This document shows positions 26,726 through 60,581 of a DNA stretch of 64,000 nucleotides, piece after piece. The DNA lies in the sequence record MH243438.1; one strand, given 5' to 3'. The position numbers and the translations under genes are program-made. This DNA comes from Escherichia phage vB_EcoM_NBG1. The notes under the pieces were generated by a model. It worked only from the letters and a program-made list of their open reading frames with translations. It was not told where the DNA came from and did no database searches. Numbering within the stretch: position 1 is the first letter of the stretch; every line of letters starts with the position of its first letter.

Positions 26726-27091
26726 TTAGATATCAAATTCGTTAAGAACTACATCAAAGATTGCTTCGAGATGTTCATGTTTAGCTCGGTTACTCAGGAT
26801 ATGACGAATCCAAGTTTTAACCAGAAGTTTACGATTAACACCGTTCCAGCAAGGATGAGTACCTAAATCACGCTGACGGAAATCATCATCTAATGCAATT
26901 TTGAAGTTGGAACCTTCCATTGTGATTGAAACCGTGATGCCATTTTCAAATCGCATATAAACATAATTAGGAGTCATGCACTGCTCAATTTCACATACTG
27001 AACCATTTTTATGCTTCCACAAACAAACCATATCGATAGAACCAGCGATACCGTTAGAAACATATTTGCGTTCGAAGTTGGTGTAGTTCAT
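26726..27091 (-). CDS. Hypothetical protein
   Basis: 121 aa; early promoter at 27131-27162; shares CMTP motif with next ORF. Confidence 0.55.
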   Translation of the reverse strand: MNYTNFERKYVSNGIAGSIDMVCLWKHKNGSVCEIEQCMTPNYVYMRFENGITVSITMEGSNFKIALDDDFRQRDLGTHPCWNGVNRKLLVKTWIRHILSNRAKHEHLEAIFDVVLNEFDI

Positions 27092-27165: not shown

Positions 27166-27534
27166 TTATGCAACTTTAATCCAATTGTCTAAATTTAAAA
27201 CACCTTTGGCTTTCATTTTTTCGATCAGGTTATCTGCTGTAATGCGTCCATTTTGATACCATGTAACATCTTCAGAGTAACCAGTTTCTTCGTCAACATA
27301 TGTTTCTGAACGAATTTTACCGGTAATAATAGTTTTTAATTCGTATGTGTCACCTGTGAAAAAGTTTGCTAACACAATTTTCCAAGAGAAATCATCTGAA
27401 GGACCTTCAGGGGTCATACAACCTACGAACTCAAATTGCTCTTTGTATAACATCCACTGGAATTCTTTAATTTCGATAGCTTTATAACCGTCGTGGTCTT
27501 TACATTTGATGTATGAGTTCAGATTGATTTTCAT
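27166..27534 (-). CDS. Hypothetical protein
   Basis: 122 aa; early promoter at 27574-27605. Confidence 0.55.
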   Translation of the reverse strand: MKINLNSYIKCKDHDGYKAIEIKEFQWMLYKEQFEFVGCMTPEGPSDDFSWKIVLANFFTGDTYELKTIITGKIRSETYVDEETGYSEDVTWYQNGRITADNLIEKMKAKGVLNLDNWIKVA

Positions 27535-27573: not shown

Positions 27574-27605
27574 CTATAGTAACACATCCTACAGGAGAGT
27601 AAACA
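27574..27605 (-). promoter_or_regulatory. T4-type early promoter
   Basis: GTTTAC -35 and GTTACTATAG -10 on the - strand; upstream of the 122 aa ORF. Confidence 0.6.
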
Positions 27606-58115: not shown

Positions 58116-58748
58116 TCACAGTACGTTAGTTACAAGGGTAATGATTTCTTTGGACACATTAGGGAAGTCAATGTAGGTATATTTACCACCGATCTTAATC
58201 TTAACATCATTTTCAAGAGAAGTAAACAGCTTTGATTCAGTTTCTGACATATTGTATGCAAAGATTCTAAGAGCGCCATCTCGACGAATTTCGATCTGAC
58301 GAATACCTAGAACTCGTTTTGCAAATCGAACTTCTAAGTTACTACGGTTTTCACCAATTTCTTTAACTTCAACTTTATCTTTAATATTTTCAAAAACAAA
58401 GTTTGCTAATTCATGCATTTCAGGAGTAACTCCACGTGCTTTTCTGGTGTTACGTTTCTGAAGAAGTTCTGGAGCATTTTCTTGGGCAAAGAGGTCTGCA
58501 GCTTTTTGGATAATATCCATTGCTTCGCCTGTTGCTATAAGTCCATCACCGGATTTTTCGACTAAACCTTTCTTAATCAATACACCAATGTTAGAGTTAA
58601 CAACTGATGCGTTGTATTCTGCTTCCAGAGCTTCACGGACATTGGCAGCAGTGGTGAAGTTGTTCTTAATGATATAAACCATTATTGCAGCAGTTTTTTC
58701 ATTCAGAACGTTTTCAGAAGCTTTGATGATGTAAGTAACTTTAGACAT
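58116..58748 (-). CDS. motA: Middle-promoter transcription activator MotA
   Basis: 210 aa; MSKVTYIIKAS..NVLNEKTA...VVNSNIGVLIKKGLVEKSGDGLI matches remembered T4 MotA; early promoter 58782-58815. Confidence 0.95.
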   Translation of the reverse strand: MSKVTYIIKASENVLNEKTAAIMVYIIKNNFTTAANVREALEAEYNASVVNSNIGVLIKKGLVEKSGDGLIATGEAMDIIQKAADLFAQENAPELLQKRNTRKARGVTPEMHELANFVFENIKDKVEVKEIGENRSNLEVRFAKRVLGIRQIEIRRDGALRIFAYNMSETESKLFTSLENDVKIKIGGKYTYIDFPNVSKEIITLVTNVL

Positions 58749-58781
58749 TTTATTTCTCCAAATTAGTACTTGTTTTGATAG

Positions 58782-58815
58782 GTCTATAATATCATGTTTG
58801 AAGCAAAAGTAAACT
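58782..58815 (-). promoter_or_regulatory. T4-type early promoter upstream of motA
   Basis: GTTTAC -35, 17 nt spacer, GATATTATAGAC -10. Confidence 0.65.
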
Positions 58816-58852
58816 TTATTTTGGGCTCTTTTTCCAAAAGCCCTGGTAAAAT

Positions 58853-59068
58853 TTACAAACTCATTTCTTTAATAAGGCCAATAAGTTTTGCCTTTTTAGA
58901 ACGAAGCTTTTCTAAACGATGACCATTTGAACCGCGAACCACCAAAGAATTGATTTCAACTTCTAAGAAATTTAATTCTTCAACAAGTGCTTTACGGGGA
59001 GCATTCATACCAGGTTTAACTTTACCGAAACGAGTAGTTGTGTTTTGGGTTAATTTCATTTTAGACAT
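58853..59068 (-). CDS. Hypothetical small basic protein
   Basis: 71 aa; has its own early promoter; 5' leader and first codons nearly identical to motA (see findings). Confidence 0.55.
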   Translation of the reverse strand: MSKMKLTQNTTTRFGKVKPGMNAPRKALVEELNFLEVEINSLVVRGSNGHRLEKLRSKKAKLIGLIKEMSL

Positions 59069-59103
59069 TTTATTTCTCCAATTTGGTTGTTTTGTTTTGA
59101 TAG

Positions 59104-59137
59104 GTCTATAATATCATGTTTGAAGCACGTGTAAACT
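59104..59137 (-). promoter_or_regulatory. T4-type early promoter (duplicate of the motA promoter module)
   Basis: Near-identical copy of the 58782-58815 module, upstream of the 71 aa ORF. Confidence 0.65.
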
Positions 59138-59255
59138 GTTTTGTGAGGAAAAAATGCACAAAAGGGAGCTTCGGCTCCCTAATCATGTTTGTCCAACCAA
59201 TACAGCCAAATCACTAGTGCAGCTATTGCACCGAGAAATCCTAAGGCTAGGGCAC

Positions 59256-60581
59256 TCAAAGTGCCTCCAAGTCTTTAGTGTACTCTGTCACAACATCAGT
59301 AGACTTCCAATACTCATTTTCTTCTTTCTTAGCTTTAGCTTCTTCTGCTAGTTTACGTGCTTCATCGGAAGTGATATGGAAGATGTTAAGACCTACCAGT
59401 TTATCGACATGTTCTTTATACATTTCGATTTGTGCTAGCTCTTCAGTCAAAGCTTTACGAGTCTTGCCCTGAATCACAATTTCACCGTTGATAACTTTTT
59501 TGATGAAGTGCGCCTTAGCAAAAGCAAGTTTAAATGCTTTTTCAGATTCAAGGATTTTGTTGTCAATACGTTTCTGAACGTAAGTCTTACGGACTTCAAC
59601 AAAATCTTTGATTAAGTCCACTACGTTATCGTAGACAGCTAATTTACCCTTTTCATTAATCACTGTGATGTTTTGTGAACGACGTTCGATGAGACTAAAA
59701 TCTTTCATGATTTTTTCATGACGTAGCTCTTCATCACCAGGAAGCGAGTACTCTTTACGGAACTTCACCTTAAACCCAAAGCCGTGTTCACCACAATCAT
59801 CTTCCCATGAGATTAGACCTTTGTCTTCCAATGGGTCAAGAACCTTACTCACGTACGTTTCACGGTCGAATTTATATGGGATTTCAGTTATCTGCATTTG
59901 AGTGCGAGATGTGAACTTATATGTTCCGTGAATCTCATAACGCCCATCAACTTCATGTACTTCACCACGGAATTCCGGGAATTCAACTTTTGGCTTAGTG
60001 ACATTTTTACCTTGAAGAGCTTGTAATACAGCCTTTTTTACCGATTTAAAACTATGAGGCAGAATATTTGTTGCGTAACCGGTTGCAATACCAGAGACAC
60101 CATTCAAAAGAACTGTCGGAATAATAGGAAGATAGAATTTTGGTGGAACGTGTTCTTTATCTTCATGAGCTGGAGCATATTCAGTATCTTTATATACGTT
60201 ATAGAAATTTTTACTTACACGAGCAAAAATATAACGAGATGCTGCAGCTTTTTGGACTGTTCTAGAACCAAAGTTGCCTTGGCCATCTAACAGTGGATAG
60301 TTGTTGTTCCATGTGTTAGCCATTAATGCACCTGCATCTTGTGCAGAAGATTCACCATGGTGATAACCTAAATCTGCAACACCGCCTGCAATTGACGCAA
60401 GTTTATGAAATTTTTCTTTATTACCACGAGCCAAATCTAACGCACGATGAACCACAAAACGTTGAACCGGCTTAAATCCATCAATCATGTTTGGGATTGC
60501 ACGGTTTTCAACGGTGTACATCGCATATGCTAAGGCTTCGTTATCAATAATACTTTTTAGATTACGAGAATTCAATTGCAT
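59256..60581 (-). CDS. 52: DNA topoisomerase II medium subunit gp52
   Basis: 441 aa; MQLNSRNLKSIIDNEALAYAMYTVENRAIPNMIDGFKPVQRF... matches remembered T4 gp52. Confidence 0.96.
   Translation of the reverse strand: MQLNSRNLKSIIDNEALAYAMYTVENRAIPNMIDGFKPVQRFVVHRALDLARGNKEKFHKLASIAGGVADLGYHHGESSAQDAGALMANTWNNNYPLLDGQGNFGSRTVQKAAASRYIFARVSKNFYNVYKDTEYAPAHEDKEHVPPKFYLPIIPTVLLNGVSGIATGYATNILPHSFKSVKKAVLQALQGKNVTKPKVEFPEFRGEVHEVDGRYEIHGTYKFTSRTQMQITEIPYKFDRETYVSKVLDPLEDKGLISWEDDCGEHGFGFKVKFRKEYSLPGDEELRHEKIMKDFSLIERRSQNITVINEKGKLAVYDNVVDLIKDFVEVRKTYVQKRIDNKILESEKAFKLAFAKAHFIKKVINGEIVIQGKTRKALTEELAQIEMYKEHVDKLVGLNIFHITSDEARKLAEEAKAKKEENEYWKSTDVVTEYTKDLEAL

Follow-up and report, generated by a model that had tools for sequence, protein, structure and literature searches.

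The region directly upstream of motA in Escherichia phage vB_EcoM_NBG1 (MH243438.1) raises the question of why motA, the gene for the activator of middle transcription, and the small gene in front of it begin in almost the same way, and what this repetition has to do with the presence of the small gene. The window, which is the whole stretch of 64,000 nucleotides analyzed here, comes from an RB69-like phage of the genus Mosigvirus. We found that a near-identical early promoter, leader, and start codon, present in two copies, flank a small mobile gene directly upstream of motA. A preliminary description of the window had offered two readings of this repetition: either it arose by recent duplication, or a portable regulatory cassette had supplied a new small ORF with the motA expression signals.

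Two copies of an early promoter module

Both copies lie on the minus strand, copy 2 (59136-59060, 77 nt) upstream of the small gene, ORF71, and copy 1 (58814-58740, 75 nt) upstream of motA, and each comprises an early promoter, a leader, a Shine-Dalgarno (SD) sequence, and the codons ATG TCT AAA. In copy 2, the -35 hexamer GTTTAC (59136-59131) is followed by TGn with the -10 hexamer TATTAT (59113-59108), GGAG (59079-59076), and the ATG (59068-59066) that opens the first three codons of ORF71 (59068-59060); the corresponding elements of copy 1 are found at 58814-58809, 58791-58786, 58759-58756, and 58748-58746, and its three codons (58748-58740) are those of motA. The copies are direct repeats whose promoter parts start 322 nt apart and whose leader parts start 320 nt apart, and a global alignment gives 88% identity (68 of 77 columns identical, 7 mismatches, and one 2-nt gap). 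The copies agree without exception over 36 consecutive nt that run through the -10 region and over the 22-mer TTGGAGAAATAAAATGTCTAAA, which is the SD-ATG-TCT-AAA block; the differences comprise 3 nt just past the -35 hexamer and a ~12-nt patch in the middle of the leader. The early claim of two ~75-bp modules ~320 bp apart, with the early promoter, a near-identical leader, and the same three codons, is thereby confirmed, including its position.

With up to 3 mismatches allowed in the 64-kb window, GTTTACNNNNGCTTCAAACATGATATTATAGACCTATCAAAACAA and TTGGAGAAATAAAATGTCTAAA gave no more and no fewer than two matches each, and none of 100 dinucleotide-preserving shuffles gave a match to either. BLAST of the region against the window aligned 86 columns at 86% identity (E = 2.5e-22). 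No third copy was found in the window by pattern search with 3 mismatches or by blastn-short, and megablast of a 115-nt module against whole Mosigvirus genomes returned 1 or 2 matches per genome, with no third copy.

Part of the promoter identity is family consensus. The 13 GTTTAC-N16-18-TAYWAT sites on the early-gene strand of the window, taken as early promoter candidates, show a family resemblance, but near-identity occurs in the copy 1/copy 2 pair only: in ungapped comparison of the promoter part, this pair is 82% identical, in contrast to 51 +/- 10% for the other pairs, whose maximum is 74%. The spacer TGCTTCAAACATGA is confined to the same pair. Because the identity exceeds the early-promoter family resemblance and takes in the leader and the start codon, the similarity is not limited to the hexamers. 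Elsewhere in the window, the promoter/leader sequences at 27604 and 27161 reach 70% identity in ungapped alignment. A direct repeat (D3) and an inverted repeat (I1) in the window look like chance matches.

Both spacers contain TTTTGCTTCA (58805-58799 and 59127-59121), located 7 nt from TATTAT. Middle promoters were judged by a MotA box, (a/t)(a/t)(a/t)TGCTTtA, centred at -30 and lying 11-13 nt upstream of a TAnnnT -10 element. At a distance of only 7 nt from TATTAT, the GCTT is about 5 bp too close, and the hexamers 11-13 nt downstream of the spacer box (ATAGAC, TAGACC, and AGACCT) are without the required T at -7. A MotA-dependent middle promoter at the spacer TGCTTCA was rejected on this spacing and the missing usable -10.

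Organization of the region between gene 52 and motA

The elements follow one another in the order gene 52, a tiny membrane ORF, a terminator, copy 2, ORF71, a stem-loop, copy 1, and motA, all on the minus strand. Gene 52 (59256-60581; ORF list), which encodes the topoisomerase II medium subunit and is annotated as gp52 in PhAPEC2, RB69, and T4, forms the upstream edge of the cassette slot; motA (58116-58748), assigned from the ORF list and the annotations in relatives, forms the downstream edge, and its product is 52% identical to T4 MotA and 69% identical to JS98 MotA. The tiny hydrophobic ORF (59179-59259, 26 aa, TTG start), read from the sequence, overlaps the gene 52 stop codon. It has a CDS annotation in HX01, small hydrophobic ORFs lie at the same place in T4 and JS98, and it is the positional counterpart of T4 motA.1.

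The intrinsic terminator (59149-59179) consists of the hairpin GGGAGC-CGAA-GCTCCC (59179-59164) followed by TTTTGTGCATTTTTT. The hairpin folds at -14.6 kcal/mol (z = -3.1), and the terminator is also annotated in PhAPEC2 and WFK; in RB69, a terminator 'motA<--52' has been predicted at 162727-162742 (Nolan 2006, PMC1524935). Directly after the ORF71 stop codon, the stem-loop GGGCTTTT-GGAAA-AAGAGCCC (58823-58843) forms an 8-bp stem (-12.2 kcal/mol, z = -2.2), which the cassettes of Mosigvirus, Dhakavirus, and Tequatrovirus all retain; among them, one pair has changed from G-C to A-U in a compensatory manner, and G-U intermediates occur. The stem-loop is followed by AAAATAAA and then by the -35 hexamer. 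Because it has no U-run, this stem-loop is not a canonical terminator and its terminator function is uncertain. Both leaders are A-rich and lack stable structure (-1.7 and -2.1 kcal/mol, z about 0.2-0.4). At the orthologous site of RB69, an early promoter, Pe:162713, has been predicted (Nolan et al. 2006, PMC1524935), and early-promoter activity of both copies is probable, judging from their sequence and from the T4 and RB69 predictions.

ORF71 and the contents of the slot

The cargo gene ORF71 (58853-59068, minus strand; ORF list) encodes a basic protein of 71 aa that is predicted to be coiled-coil-like. It belongs to PHROG 6200 (E = 1.6e-39), a family of unknown function, and has no credible match in Pfam (best RACo_C_ter, E = 0.05, sub-threshold) or among PDB sequences (only a coiled-coil at E = 0.74). 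ORF71 is present in 93 phage records, at one place per record, and together with the two-copy arrangement in about 76 Mosigvirus-type records, both counts including GenBank/RefSeq duplicates; in 10 of the 10 loci inspected, its place is the 52-motA slot. In Dhakavirus and Tequatrovirus, ORF71 is 72-77% identical to that of Mosigvirus, starts with MNK-MK instead of MSK-MK, and is preceded by a different leader. A dN/dS of 0.18-0.27 over the three genera points to purifying selection on ORF71. Rather than a new ORF, as it had been called at first, ORF71 is an established, conserved small gene.

We located the corresponding loci of relatives with an alignment of four MotA proteins, which found 32, whereas MotA alone as query found 2. 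The 52-motA slot is empty in T4, RB69, WFK, and two Dhakavirus contigs. It holds ORF71 in Mosigvirus, in the Dhakavirus phages JS98 and VR5, and in the Tequatrovirus phages Manna and UoN_LDJ77_1; ORF75 in one Dhakavirus contig and Tequatrovirus HP3; and ORF73, ORF87, or ORFs of 215-223 aa in other phages. From these contents, the gap is a hyperplastic cassette slot.

Roughly half of the Mosigvirus records are without exactly one 322-bp unit, a count that is rough because it comes from megablast identity bands in which ORF71-plus genomes also match in part. Over the same span, the ORF71-less Mosigviruses measure 679 bp and the window 1001 bp, the difference being one 322-bp unit. Two junction types exist among the empty sites. 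In WFK, mar005p1, GADS24, L048, and L049, the crossover lies in the 22-mer and joins the copy 2 leader to motA, while in RB69, PTK, and pEK20 it lies in the promoter core and joins the 5' part of copy 2 to the copy 1 leader. In WFK, mar005p1, GADS24, and two IMG/VR contigs, copy 2 is unbroken from the terminator through ATG TCT AAA into motA codon 4. As copy 2 reads into motA in these ORF71-less Mosigviruses, ORF71 in the window sits behind the promoter, leader, and first three codons of motA. The comparison with related genomes that had been suggested thus identifies copy 2 as the resident motA start region, now fused to ORF71, and the cassette part of the earlier proposal stands. The 22-mer is invariant in both copies of the six ORF71-plus Mosigviruses examined (6/6) and in all empty sites.

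The 280-nt upstream flank of the window is identical to that of the ORF71-less mar005p1, and among 11 flanking sequences the flanks do not sort by ORF71 state. Within Mosigvirus, two histories are conceivable: an ORF71-plus ancestor that underwent deletions of two kinds, or a gain of ORF71 by insertion with deletion afterwards.

Exchange between genera and concerted change

The ORF71 cassettes of JS98 and Manna are 96.4% identical, in contrast to 61.8% for motA and 69.6% for gene 52; likewise, the ORF75 cassettes of HP3 and a Dhakavirus are 95.5% identical and their motA genes 62%. Horizontal transfer of whole ORF71 and ORF75 cassettes between genera is directly visible in these alignments. 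Where cassette junctions can be seen, they fall at CTATCAA, within the SD-ATG region, or in the spacer of the promoter. The 5' end of copy 1 (the stem-loop plus GTTTACTTxTGCTT) moves with the cassette in three genera. With unrelated ORFs in one slot and cassettes about 96% identical between flanks about 62% identical, the proposed link to the modular shuffling of T4-type phages (PMC2839356, PMC4122927) is borne out.

The two copies also change together. JS98 has TTCTGC in both copies and VR5 has TTATGC in both; where Dhakavirus has T and C in both copies, Mosigvirus has C and T in both. Three clustered nucleotide changes convert codons 2-3 of ORF71 from AAT AAG to the TCT AAA of motA, accompanied by changes in the upstream SD spacer, a cluster that has the form of a conversion signature.

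Modules as probable homology arms of a mobile cassette

Taken together, the copies are very probably tandem modules of the published PeSL (promoter-early stem-loop) type that bracket a 322-bp mobile ORF71 cassette in the 52-motA slot and are shuffled by general recombination. Host sigma-70 RNA polymerase would read each module immediately after infection, copy 2 driving ORF71 after the gene 52 terminator and copy 1 driving motA. Because the intervening stem-loop has no U-run, a fraction of the transcripts started at copy 2 probably continues into motA. The modules would act as homology arms at which phage general recombination inserts, deletes, and swaps cassettes within and between genera, and the genome comparison shows such events; copy 1 is joined to the cassette's own 3' stem-loop. 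The near-identity of the copies would then have three sources, the shared early-promoter consensus, a slot promoter of common descent, and gene conversion (or crossover), to which the identity of the 22-nt SD-ATG-TCT-AAA block, seen only in Mosigvirus, would be due. As this region is identical, ORF71 and MotA should be translated alike, and RegB, cutting at GGAG, may shut both off alike. That the promoters are active, that RegB cuts, and that mini-circles form is inferred.

Selection on expression could account for part of the same pattern. The SD-ATG-TCT-AAA identity could be kept by selection for co-regulation of ORF71 and MotA through RegB, a RegA-type, or another operator-binding factor, with recombination incidental, which would make ORF71 a functional partner in switching from early to middle transcription. 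The invariance of the 22-mer in both copies and all empty sites fits this idea, as does the presence of a regB gene in RB69, and the T4 motA mRNA is reported to be the classical RegB substrate (Uzan et al. 1988; Uzan 1990, cited in PMC3014915). RegB sites, GG*AGRAYARAA, lie in the SD regions of early genes (PMC3014915); similarly, in both leaders the SD is GGAG, an A-rich stretch comes next, and the 5' UTR of the early gene is unstructured. However, GGAGAAATAAA matches the strong consensus GGAGRAYARAA at 9 of 11 positions only, and RegB of the RB69 type is divergent. Moreover, Dhakavirus and Tequatrovirus retain ORF71 despite a different leader and the MNK start, so an identical translation start is not needed for ORF71 function, and the common empty-site alleles show ORF71 to be dispensable, which counts against co-regulation. 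This explanation, compatible with the mobile cassette and not exclusive of it, is unlikely to be the main one. A bolder form of it, in which the identical modules, from the promoter through the RegB-type GGAG leader to the first three codons, are a selected 'plug-in expression adaptor' that fuses slot cargo in frame to the MotA start and switches it on and off like MotA, seems to us quite unlikely; if it were true, MotA feedback might act via the Mot-box-like TGCTTCA spacer element, and ORF71 would be regulated along with MotA and modulate either the early-to-middle switch or host takeover.

Functional convergence, in which strong early promoters and good ribosome-binding sites are selected to the same optimum without shared ancestry or recombination, has some points in its favor. 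The early promoters of T4-type phages have an extended consensus outside the hexamers (PMC2988021); in the window, GTTTAC, TAYTAT, and AGACNTATCAA are common to the other early promoters, and GGAGAATAAAATG ends several leaders. In Dhakavirus genomes, an exact 22-mer common to the early promoters, CATGATACTATAGACCTATCAA, occurs in at least 10 copies preceding unrelated genes. Convergence is nevertheless very unlikely, since the spacer of this pair recurs in none of the other window promoters, the clustered codon and SD-spacer changes look like conversion, the JS98 and VR5 SNPs occur in both copies within each genome, and the hybrid empty-site junctions require physical recombination between copies.

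A dedicated site-specific recombinase or nuclease that recognizes the stem-loop or the promoter could move cassettes in an integron-like manner, in place of general homologous recombination. The stem-loop is conserved across genera with its compensatory change, a PeSL stem-loop-binding protein has been speculated upon by Arbiol et al. (PMC2839356), and the junctions recur at few places (CTATCAA, SD-ATG, and the terminator T-run). Yet the junctions occupy several positions, always in identity stretches (the 36-nt core, the 22-mer, the promoter spacer, and the T-run), which is the pattern predicted by homology-dependent exchange; the cassettes come without an accompanying recombinase gene, and the G-U stem pairs argue for a role of the stem at the RNA level rather than as a DNA site. 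We consider such an enzyme highly improbable. A recent local tandem duplication of the sequence upstream of motA, produced by slippage or unequal crossover either in this genome or in its direct ancestor and with ORF71 as a by-product, would explain direct repeats 320-322 bp apart that are 88% identical and include three motA codons, but it is scarcely credible and this half of the early proposal falls, given that the arrangement is spread over about 76 Mosigvirus-type records and, with a 72-77% identical ORF71, over two further genera, that ORF71 is under purifying selection, that its alignment with motA gives no similarity past codon 3 and no sign of a scrambled motA fragment, and that the 5' flanks differ (terminator for copy 2, cassette stem-loop for copy 1).

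Comparison with PeSL cassettes and other systems

Read as a mobile cassette between tandem modules, the locus is a clear new example of the cassette shuffling already described for T4-type phages and no new kind of element. PeSL cassettes have been described in RB49/phi1 (Arbiol et al. 2010, PMC2839356) and in PST/T4 and nt-1/KVP40 (Comeau et al. 2014, PMC4122927), with PeSL-flanked ORFs, chimeric PeSLs, and mini-circles with crossovers in the interval from the -10 to the SD or ATG (PMC2839356; PMC4122927). Both copies have the early promoter of a PeSL (GTTTAC, a 17-nt spacer with TGn, and TATTAT), which matches the PST/T4 consensus TTTACW-N17-TAYWAT (PMC4122927), a stem-loop (the terminator hairpin by copy 2 and the 8-bp stem by copy 1), and GGAG, 7 nt, and ATG. 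As in PeSLs, a stem-loop, an A/T-rich stretch, an early promoter, an SD, and an ATG stand between small non-essential ORFs, the flanked ORF occurs in some close relatives while others have one chimeric element in its place, and crossovers fall between the -10 and the SD or ATG. The small-ORF indels and replacements of PeSLs have their counterpart in the 322-bp presence or absence in Mosigvirus, the two chimeric junctions, and the unrelated ORFs of the slot.

Unlike in the published PeSLs, the homology here reaches 9 nt into the coding sequence, so that the cargo begins with the first three MotA codons, joined in frame; two distinct types of empty-site junction, and transfer between genera at about 96% identity, can also be seen directly. 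In PMC2839356 and PMC4122927, 'motA' and 'RB69' have no occurrences, JS98 appears only for the g43 region, and the 52-motA locus, Mosigvirus, and Dhakavirus are untreated. Homology arms can, as this locus shows, extend into coding sequence and yield in-frame N-terminal fusions. The locus is a compact natural experiment for PeSL modular shuffling in sequenced isolates with 95-99% identical flanks, which include the occupied state, two empty kinds (with 36-nt and 22-nt crossover blocks), alternative cargos, and cross-genus cassette transfers; with all these states in sequenced isolates, the mechanism is directly testable with available phages.

In relation to the motA promoter of T4 and RB69, copy 2 is the positional orthologue, situated after gene 52, the small membrane ORF, and the terminator. 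In the window, however, it would drive ORF71, with a second copy driving motA, whereas in ORF71-less relatives it reads directly into motA. The spacer and leader sequence of the T4 motA promoter differ, GTTTACAACCAAAGCATACTGTGGTACTAT. For annotation, the modules explain the coming and going of a conserved 71-aa early gene beside motA, and transcription of motA in these phages may start at two tandem promoters.

In the T-even internal protein (IP) loci, as described in later papers, early promoters with weak A/T-rich stem-loops flank interchangeable early genes (Repoila et al. 1994, via PMC2839356, PMC4122927). As far as these descriptions go, the 52-motA slot is similar in that conserved T4-type early promoters flank slot-confined small early genes, but the locus and the cargo differ. 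An analogy, and only that, can be drawn with integron cassettes, which share a fixed slot by a conserved gene, interchangeable single-ORF cassettes, and slot-borne expression signals. In contrast to integrons, the slot has no integrase and no attC/attI, the exchange appears to be homology-driven, and each cassette brings or regenerates its promoter.

Two near-identical modules in the gene 52-motA interval

Every gene in this part of the window is carried by the minus strand. Gene 52 (60581..59256) is followed by a 26-codon hydrophobic ORF (59259..59179), the TTG start of which overlaps the gene 52 stop, and then by a hairpin, GGGAGC-CGAA-GCTCCC then TTTTGTGCATTTTTT (59179..59149). Module copy 2 (59136..59060) leads into ORF71, a 71-aa gene (59068..58853); a second stem-loop (58843..58823) and module copy 1 (58814..58740) separate ORF71 from motA (58748..58116).

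Both modules consist of GTTTAC, a 17-nt spacer ending in TGA, TATTAT, AGACCTATCAAAACAA, a short variable patch, and TTGGAGAAATAAA followed by ATG TCT AAA. In a global alignment, 68 of the 77 columns are identical, with seven mismatches and one 2-nt gap (BLAST E = 2.5e-22), which confirms the near-identical promoter, leader and start modules reported in the preliminary description. Two blocks are exact in both copies: 36 nt that begin at the last base of the spacer start, span the -10 and extend into transcribed sequence, and 22 nt comprising the Shine-Dalgarno sequence, its spacer, the ATG and codons 2-3. No third occurrence of either block turned up in the window with up to three mismatches allowed, and none of 100 shuffled controls gave a match. 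The hexamers or the general early-promoter consensus alone are insufficient to account for this likeness: among the 13 GTTTAC-N16-18-TAYWAT sites on the minus strand of the window, which clearly belong to one family, the promoter parts of copies 1 and 2 share 82% ungapped identity, compared with 51 ± 10% (maximum 74%) for the other pairs.

Presence and absence of ORF71 in related phages

Over a 2-kb stretch around the site, the window matches RB69-like Mosigvirus phages at 95-98% identity, the top match being vB_EcoM_JS09 (98.4%); the relatives' annotation names the flanking genes gp52 and MotA and the 71-aa ORF "hypothetical". With tblastn, ORF71 was found in 93 phage records (all record counts include GenBank/RefSeq duplicates), at a single place in each, which was the gene 52-motA slot in all ten loci inspected. 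About 76 of these records are of the Mosigvirus type (87-100% identity), and the remaining 17, with 72-78% identity, belong to Dhakavirus (JS98, VR5, IME08, Bp7 and others) and some Tequatrovirus phages (Manna, UoN_LDJ77_1). This spread leads us to reject a recent duplication, one of the two alternatives in the preliminary description. ORF71 gives dN/dS values of 0.18-0.21 when Mosigvirus is compared with the other genera and of 0.27 for JS98 against Manna, and is a real gene; its position and signals predict immediate-early expression. It falls in PHROG 6200, a family with no assigned function, and no credible Pfam or PDB relative was found.

About 150 Mosigvirus records match a 1001-nt query that crosses the slot; query coverage reaches at least 80% in only 84 of these. 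In lower-coverage records such as WFK, mar005p1, AV112 and KAW3E185 the span is 679 bp instead of the 1001 bp in the window, so that precisely one 322-bp unit is absent. RB69 likewise has no ORF71, and its motA-gene 52 gap is 185 bp.

Empty sites and exchange between the copies

WFK, mar005p1, GADS24 and two IMG/VR Mosigvirus contigs each have a lone module that is copy-2-like over its full length: the terminator, CTCACAAAACA, GTTTACA(T/C)(G/A)T, the core and the leader CAAAACAAAACAACCAAATTGGAGAAATAAAATGTCTAAA pass directly into motA codon 4 (GTT ACT), which places the junction, relative to the window, within the 22-mer. In RB69, PTK and pEK20, the lone module is a hybrid of a copy-2 5' part and the copy-1 leader CAAAACAAATACTAATTTGGAG, and its junction lies within the promoter core. 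Two junction types between flanks that are 95-99% identical require physical exchange between the repeats at different points, and the empty sites mark copy 2 as the resident module.

The 280-nt upstream flank of the window is identical to that of mar005p1, which has no ORF71, and the first 290 nt of its motA differ at 4-6 positions from four genomes without ORF71 and at 10-12 from two with it. The ORF71 state does not track flank similarity, and the cassette is therefore an indel segregating in a recombining population. Within Mosigvirus, two kinds of deletion could have acted on an ancestral ORF71-plus state, or an insertion could have come first and a deletion later.

The two copies also change together. 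JS98 carries GTTTACTTCTGC in both copies and VR5 GTTTACTTATGC in both, and where the two Dhakavirus copies have GCTTTAAAC...ATACTAT, the Mosigvirus pair has GCTTCAAAC...ATATTAT. The leaders of the two copies are unlike each other in Dhakavirus and Tequatrovirus, where ORF71 starts ATG AAT AAG ATG AAA; in Mosigvirus, three clustered changes give TCT AAA at codons 2-3, and the Shine-Dalgarno spacer is identical to that of motA. MSK is the conserved MotA start in T4, JS98, HP3 and the window. The most economical reading of these sequences is that a crossover or conversion tract put the translation start region of motA before ORF71, a placement that the empty sites with the copy-2 leader show from the other side.

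The slot as a cassette hot spot

We surveyed the slot in 32 IMG/VR loci retrieved via MotA alignment and in GenBank loci. It is empty in T4, Mosigvirus phages and two Dhakavirus contigs; elsewhere it holds ORF71, an unrelated 75-aa ORF (PHROG 10955; one Dhakavirus contig and HP3-type Tequatroviruses), a 73-aa ORF (another Dhakavirus), an 87-aa ORF or, in other contigs, ORFs of 215-223 aa. Nearly all surveyed slots have one early promoter before the cargo and another before motA. The gene 52-motA slot is a cassette hot spot across the subfamily.

From its start codon across the stem-loop into the beginning of the downstream promoter, the ORF71 cassette of JS98 (Dhakavirus) matches that of Manna (Tequatrovirus) at 96.4% identity, whereas motA is 61.8% and gene 52 69.6% identical between the two phages; the flanks of Manna are 97% identical to T4. 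Similarly, the ORF75 cassettes of HP3 and a Dhakavirus contig share 95.5%, against 62% for motA. Cassettes thus move across genera, and their junctions fall within the promoter or leader. The upstream promoter of HP3 is the T4 motA promoter as far as CTATCAA, with a cassette-type leader beyond; that of Manna has the T4-type promoter and leader as far as GGAGATTAAAATG, then ORF71 (MNKMK...), and its downstream promoter is cassette-type in GTTTACTTCTGCTTTAA and of another type beyond. In the Mosigvirus pEK20 (MZ868638.1, 6683-7586; locus L087), the gene 52 3' end, a small membrane ORF (...LIAAHFKK) and the hairpin GGAACCTTCGGGTTCC are of the Dhakavirus type and meet the Mosigvirus promoter at the terminator T-run, which makes pEK20 an inter-genus recombinant joined at this same regulatory module. 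The proposal of a portable cassette that grafted motA signals onto a small ORF is therefore supported: cassettes cross genera, and a copy-2-type module reads into motA at empty sites.

Proposed working of the module and comparison with PeSLs

Each module shows the hallmarks of a T-even early promoter, namely the -35 GTTTAC, TGn and a -10 element; the early promoters of T4 are described as very strong, of the UP/-35/TGn/-10 type with additional consensus positions (PMC2988021). The orthologous RB69 site has a predicted early promoter (Pe:162713) and, just upstream, a terminator at 162727-162742 (Nolan 2006 supplement). The first hairpin folds as a canonical intrinsic terminator and should insulate the slot against gene 52 transcription. 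The second stem-loop is conserved, and a G-C to A-U compensatory change with sense-strand G-U intermediates suggests a role at the RNA level; since it lacks a U-run, copy-2 transcripts probably run on into motA. Both promoters would fire immediately after infection, yielding mRNAs with predicted unstructured 5' UTRs of ~31-33 nt that would be translated from an identical initiation region. Both mRNAs may also be cut by RegB at GGAG. The T4 motA mRNA is the classical RegB substrate. The module leader matches 9 of the 11 positions of the strong-site consensus GGAGRAYARAA (PMC3014915).

Beyond expression, the modules would serve as homology arms through which the general recombination system of the phage exchanges cassettes. 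This role is supported by the presence and absence of ORF71, the empty-site junctions, the slot survey, inter-genus transfer and concerted evolution, together with the published behaviour of promoter-early stem-loops (PeSLs), pairs of which were shown to form mini-circles by recombination, the crossovers lying between the -10 and the Shine-Dalgarno sequence or ATG (PMC2839356). T4-type recombination is reported to need less than ~50 bp of homology (PMC2839356), and the 36-nt and 22-nt blocks are of the same order. The MotA-box-like spacer element and the putative shared RegB site would also fit a selected co-regulation adaptor tying the cargo to MotA, which we consider improbable.

The module pair agrees with PeSLs (PMC2839356; PMC4122927) in anatomy and behaviour: the promoter, the stem-loop, the Shine-Dalgarno sequence with ATG, and indels leaving chimeric single elements are all present. 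Near-identical copies are few in Mosigvirus, whereas each Dhakavirus genome has at least ten exact 22-mers. In neither paper does motA or RB69 appear; PMC2839356 (2010) refers to JS98 once, only for the g43 region, and a full-text literature search found no description of the 52-motA locus. Unlike in published PeSLs, the homology reaches into coding sequence, giving an in-frame MSK fusion, and the set of natural recombinant alleles is unusually complete. The pair joins an already-known kind of element; for the specialist it is a neat, well-documented example and no surprise.

Other regulatory sequences

The product of the 26-codon ORF (59179-59259, minus) is (M)SALALGFLGAIAALVIWLYWLDKHD. At the corresponding position T4 has motA.1 and JS98 a 34-aa ORF, neither with obvious sequence similarity to the 26-codon ORF, which is a CDS in the HX01 annotation and missing from that of most relatives.

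The gene 52 terminator hairpin (59164-59179, minus) occurs in two versions, each the exact reverse complement of the other: GGGAGC-CGAA-GCTCCC in the window, PhAPEC2 and RB69, and GGGAGC-TTCG-GCTCCC in HX01, Shf125875, FP43, WFK, mar005p1 and others (compare loci L083, L084, L004, L005 and L086). They represent a hairpin (loop) inversion polymorphism, as expected of template switching at a quasi-palindrome.

The promoter spacers at 58799-58805 and 59121-59127 (minus) contain TTTTGCTTCA/ACGTGCTTCA, resembling the MotA-box core TGCTTtA, and the JS98 spacer has a perfect TGCTTTA. The element lies ~5 bp nearer the -10 than in middle promoters; among the early promoters of the window only copies 1 and 2 have it, and slot promoters from several genera conserve it. 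The element could act as a MotA feedback site or simply reflect common descent.

In the consensus fold of 58809-58857 (minus; alignment A3), an outer A/T-rich helix surrounds the conserved 8-bp stem, pairing GTAAATTTTA, directly past the ORF71 stop, with TAAAGTTTAC, which includes the -35 hexamer. This modelled helix is retained in five of seven sequences and may be a chance product of A/T richness.

Dhakavirus genomes carry at least ten exact copies of CATGATACTATAGACCTATCAA (extended -10 to ~+8) before unrelated early genes (L010, L013, L017, L033, L035, L036, the JS98 contig L043 and other Dhakavirus loci within L007-L047). Their early promoters use few recurring leader types and are far more uniform than those in the Mosigvirus window.

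A second adjacent promoter/leader pair, with -35 elements at 27604 and 27161 (minus), 443 bp apart, precedes ORFs of ~121 aa (27534..27166 and 27091..26726) and may be another cassette pair. Identity is 70% without gaps and 74% over the 50 nt past the -10, and GGAGAATAAAATGAA, which ends both leaders, fits the strong RegB consensus at every position.
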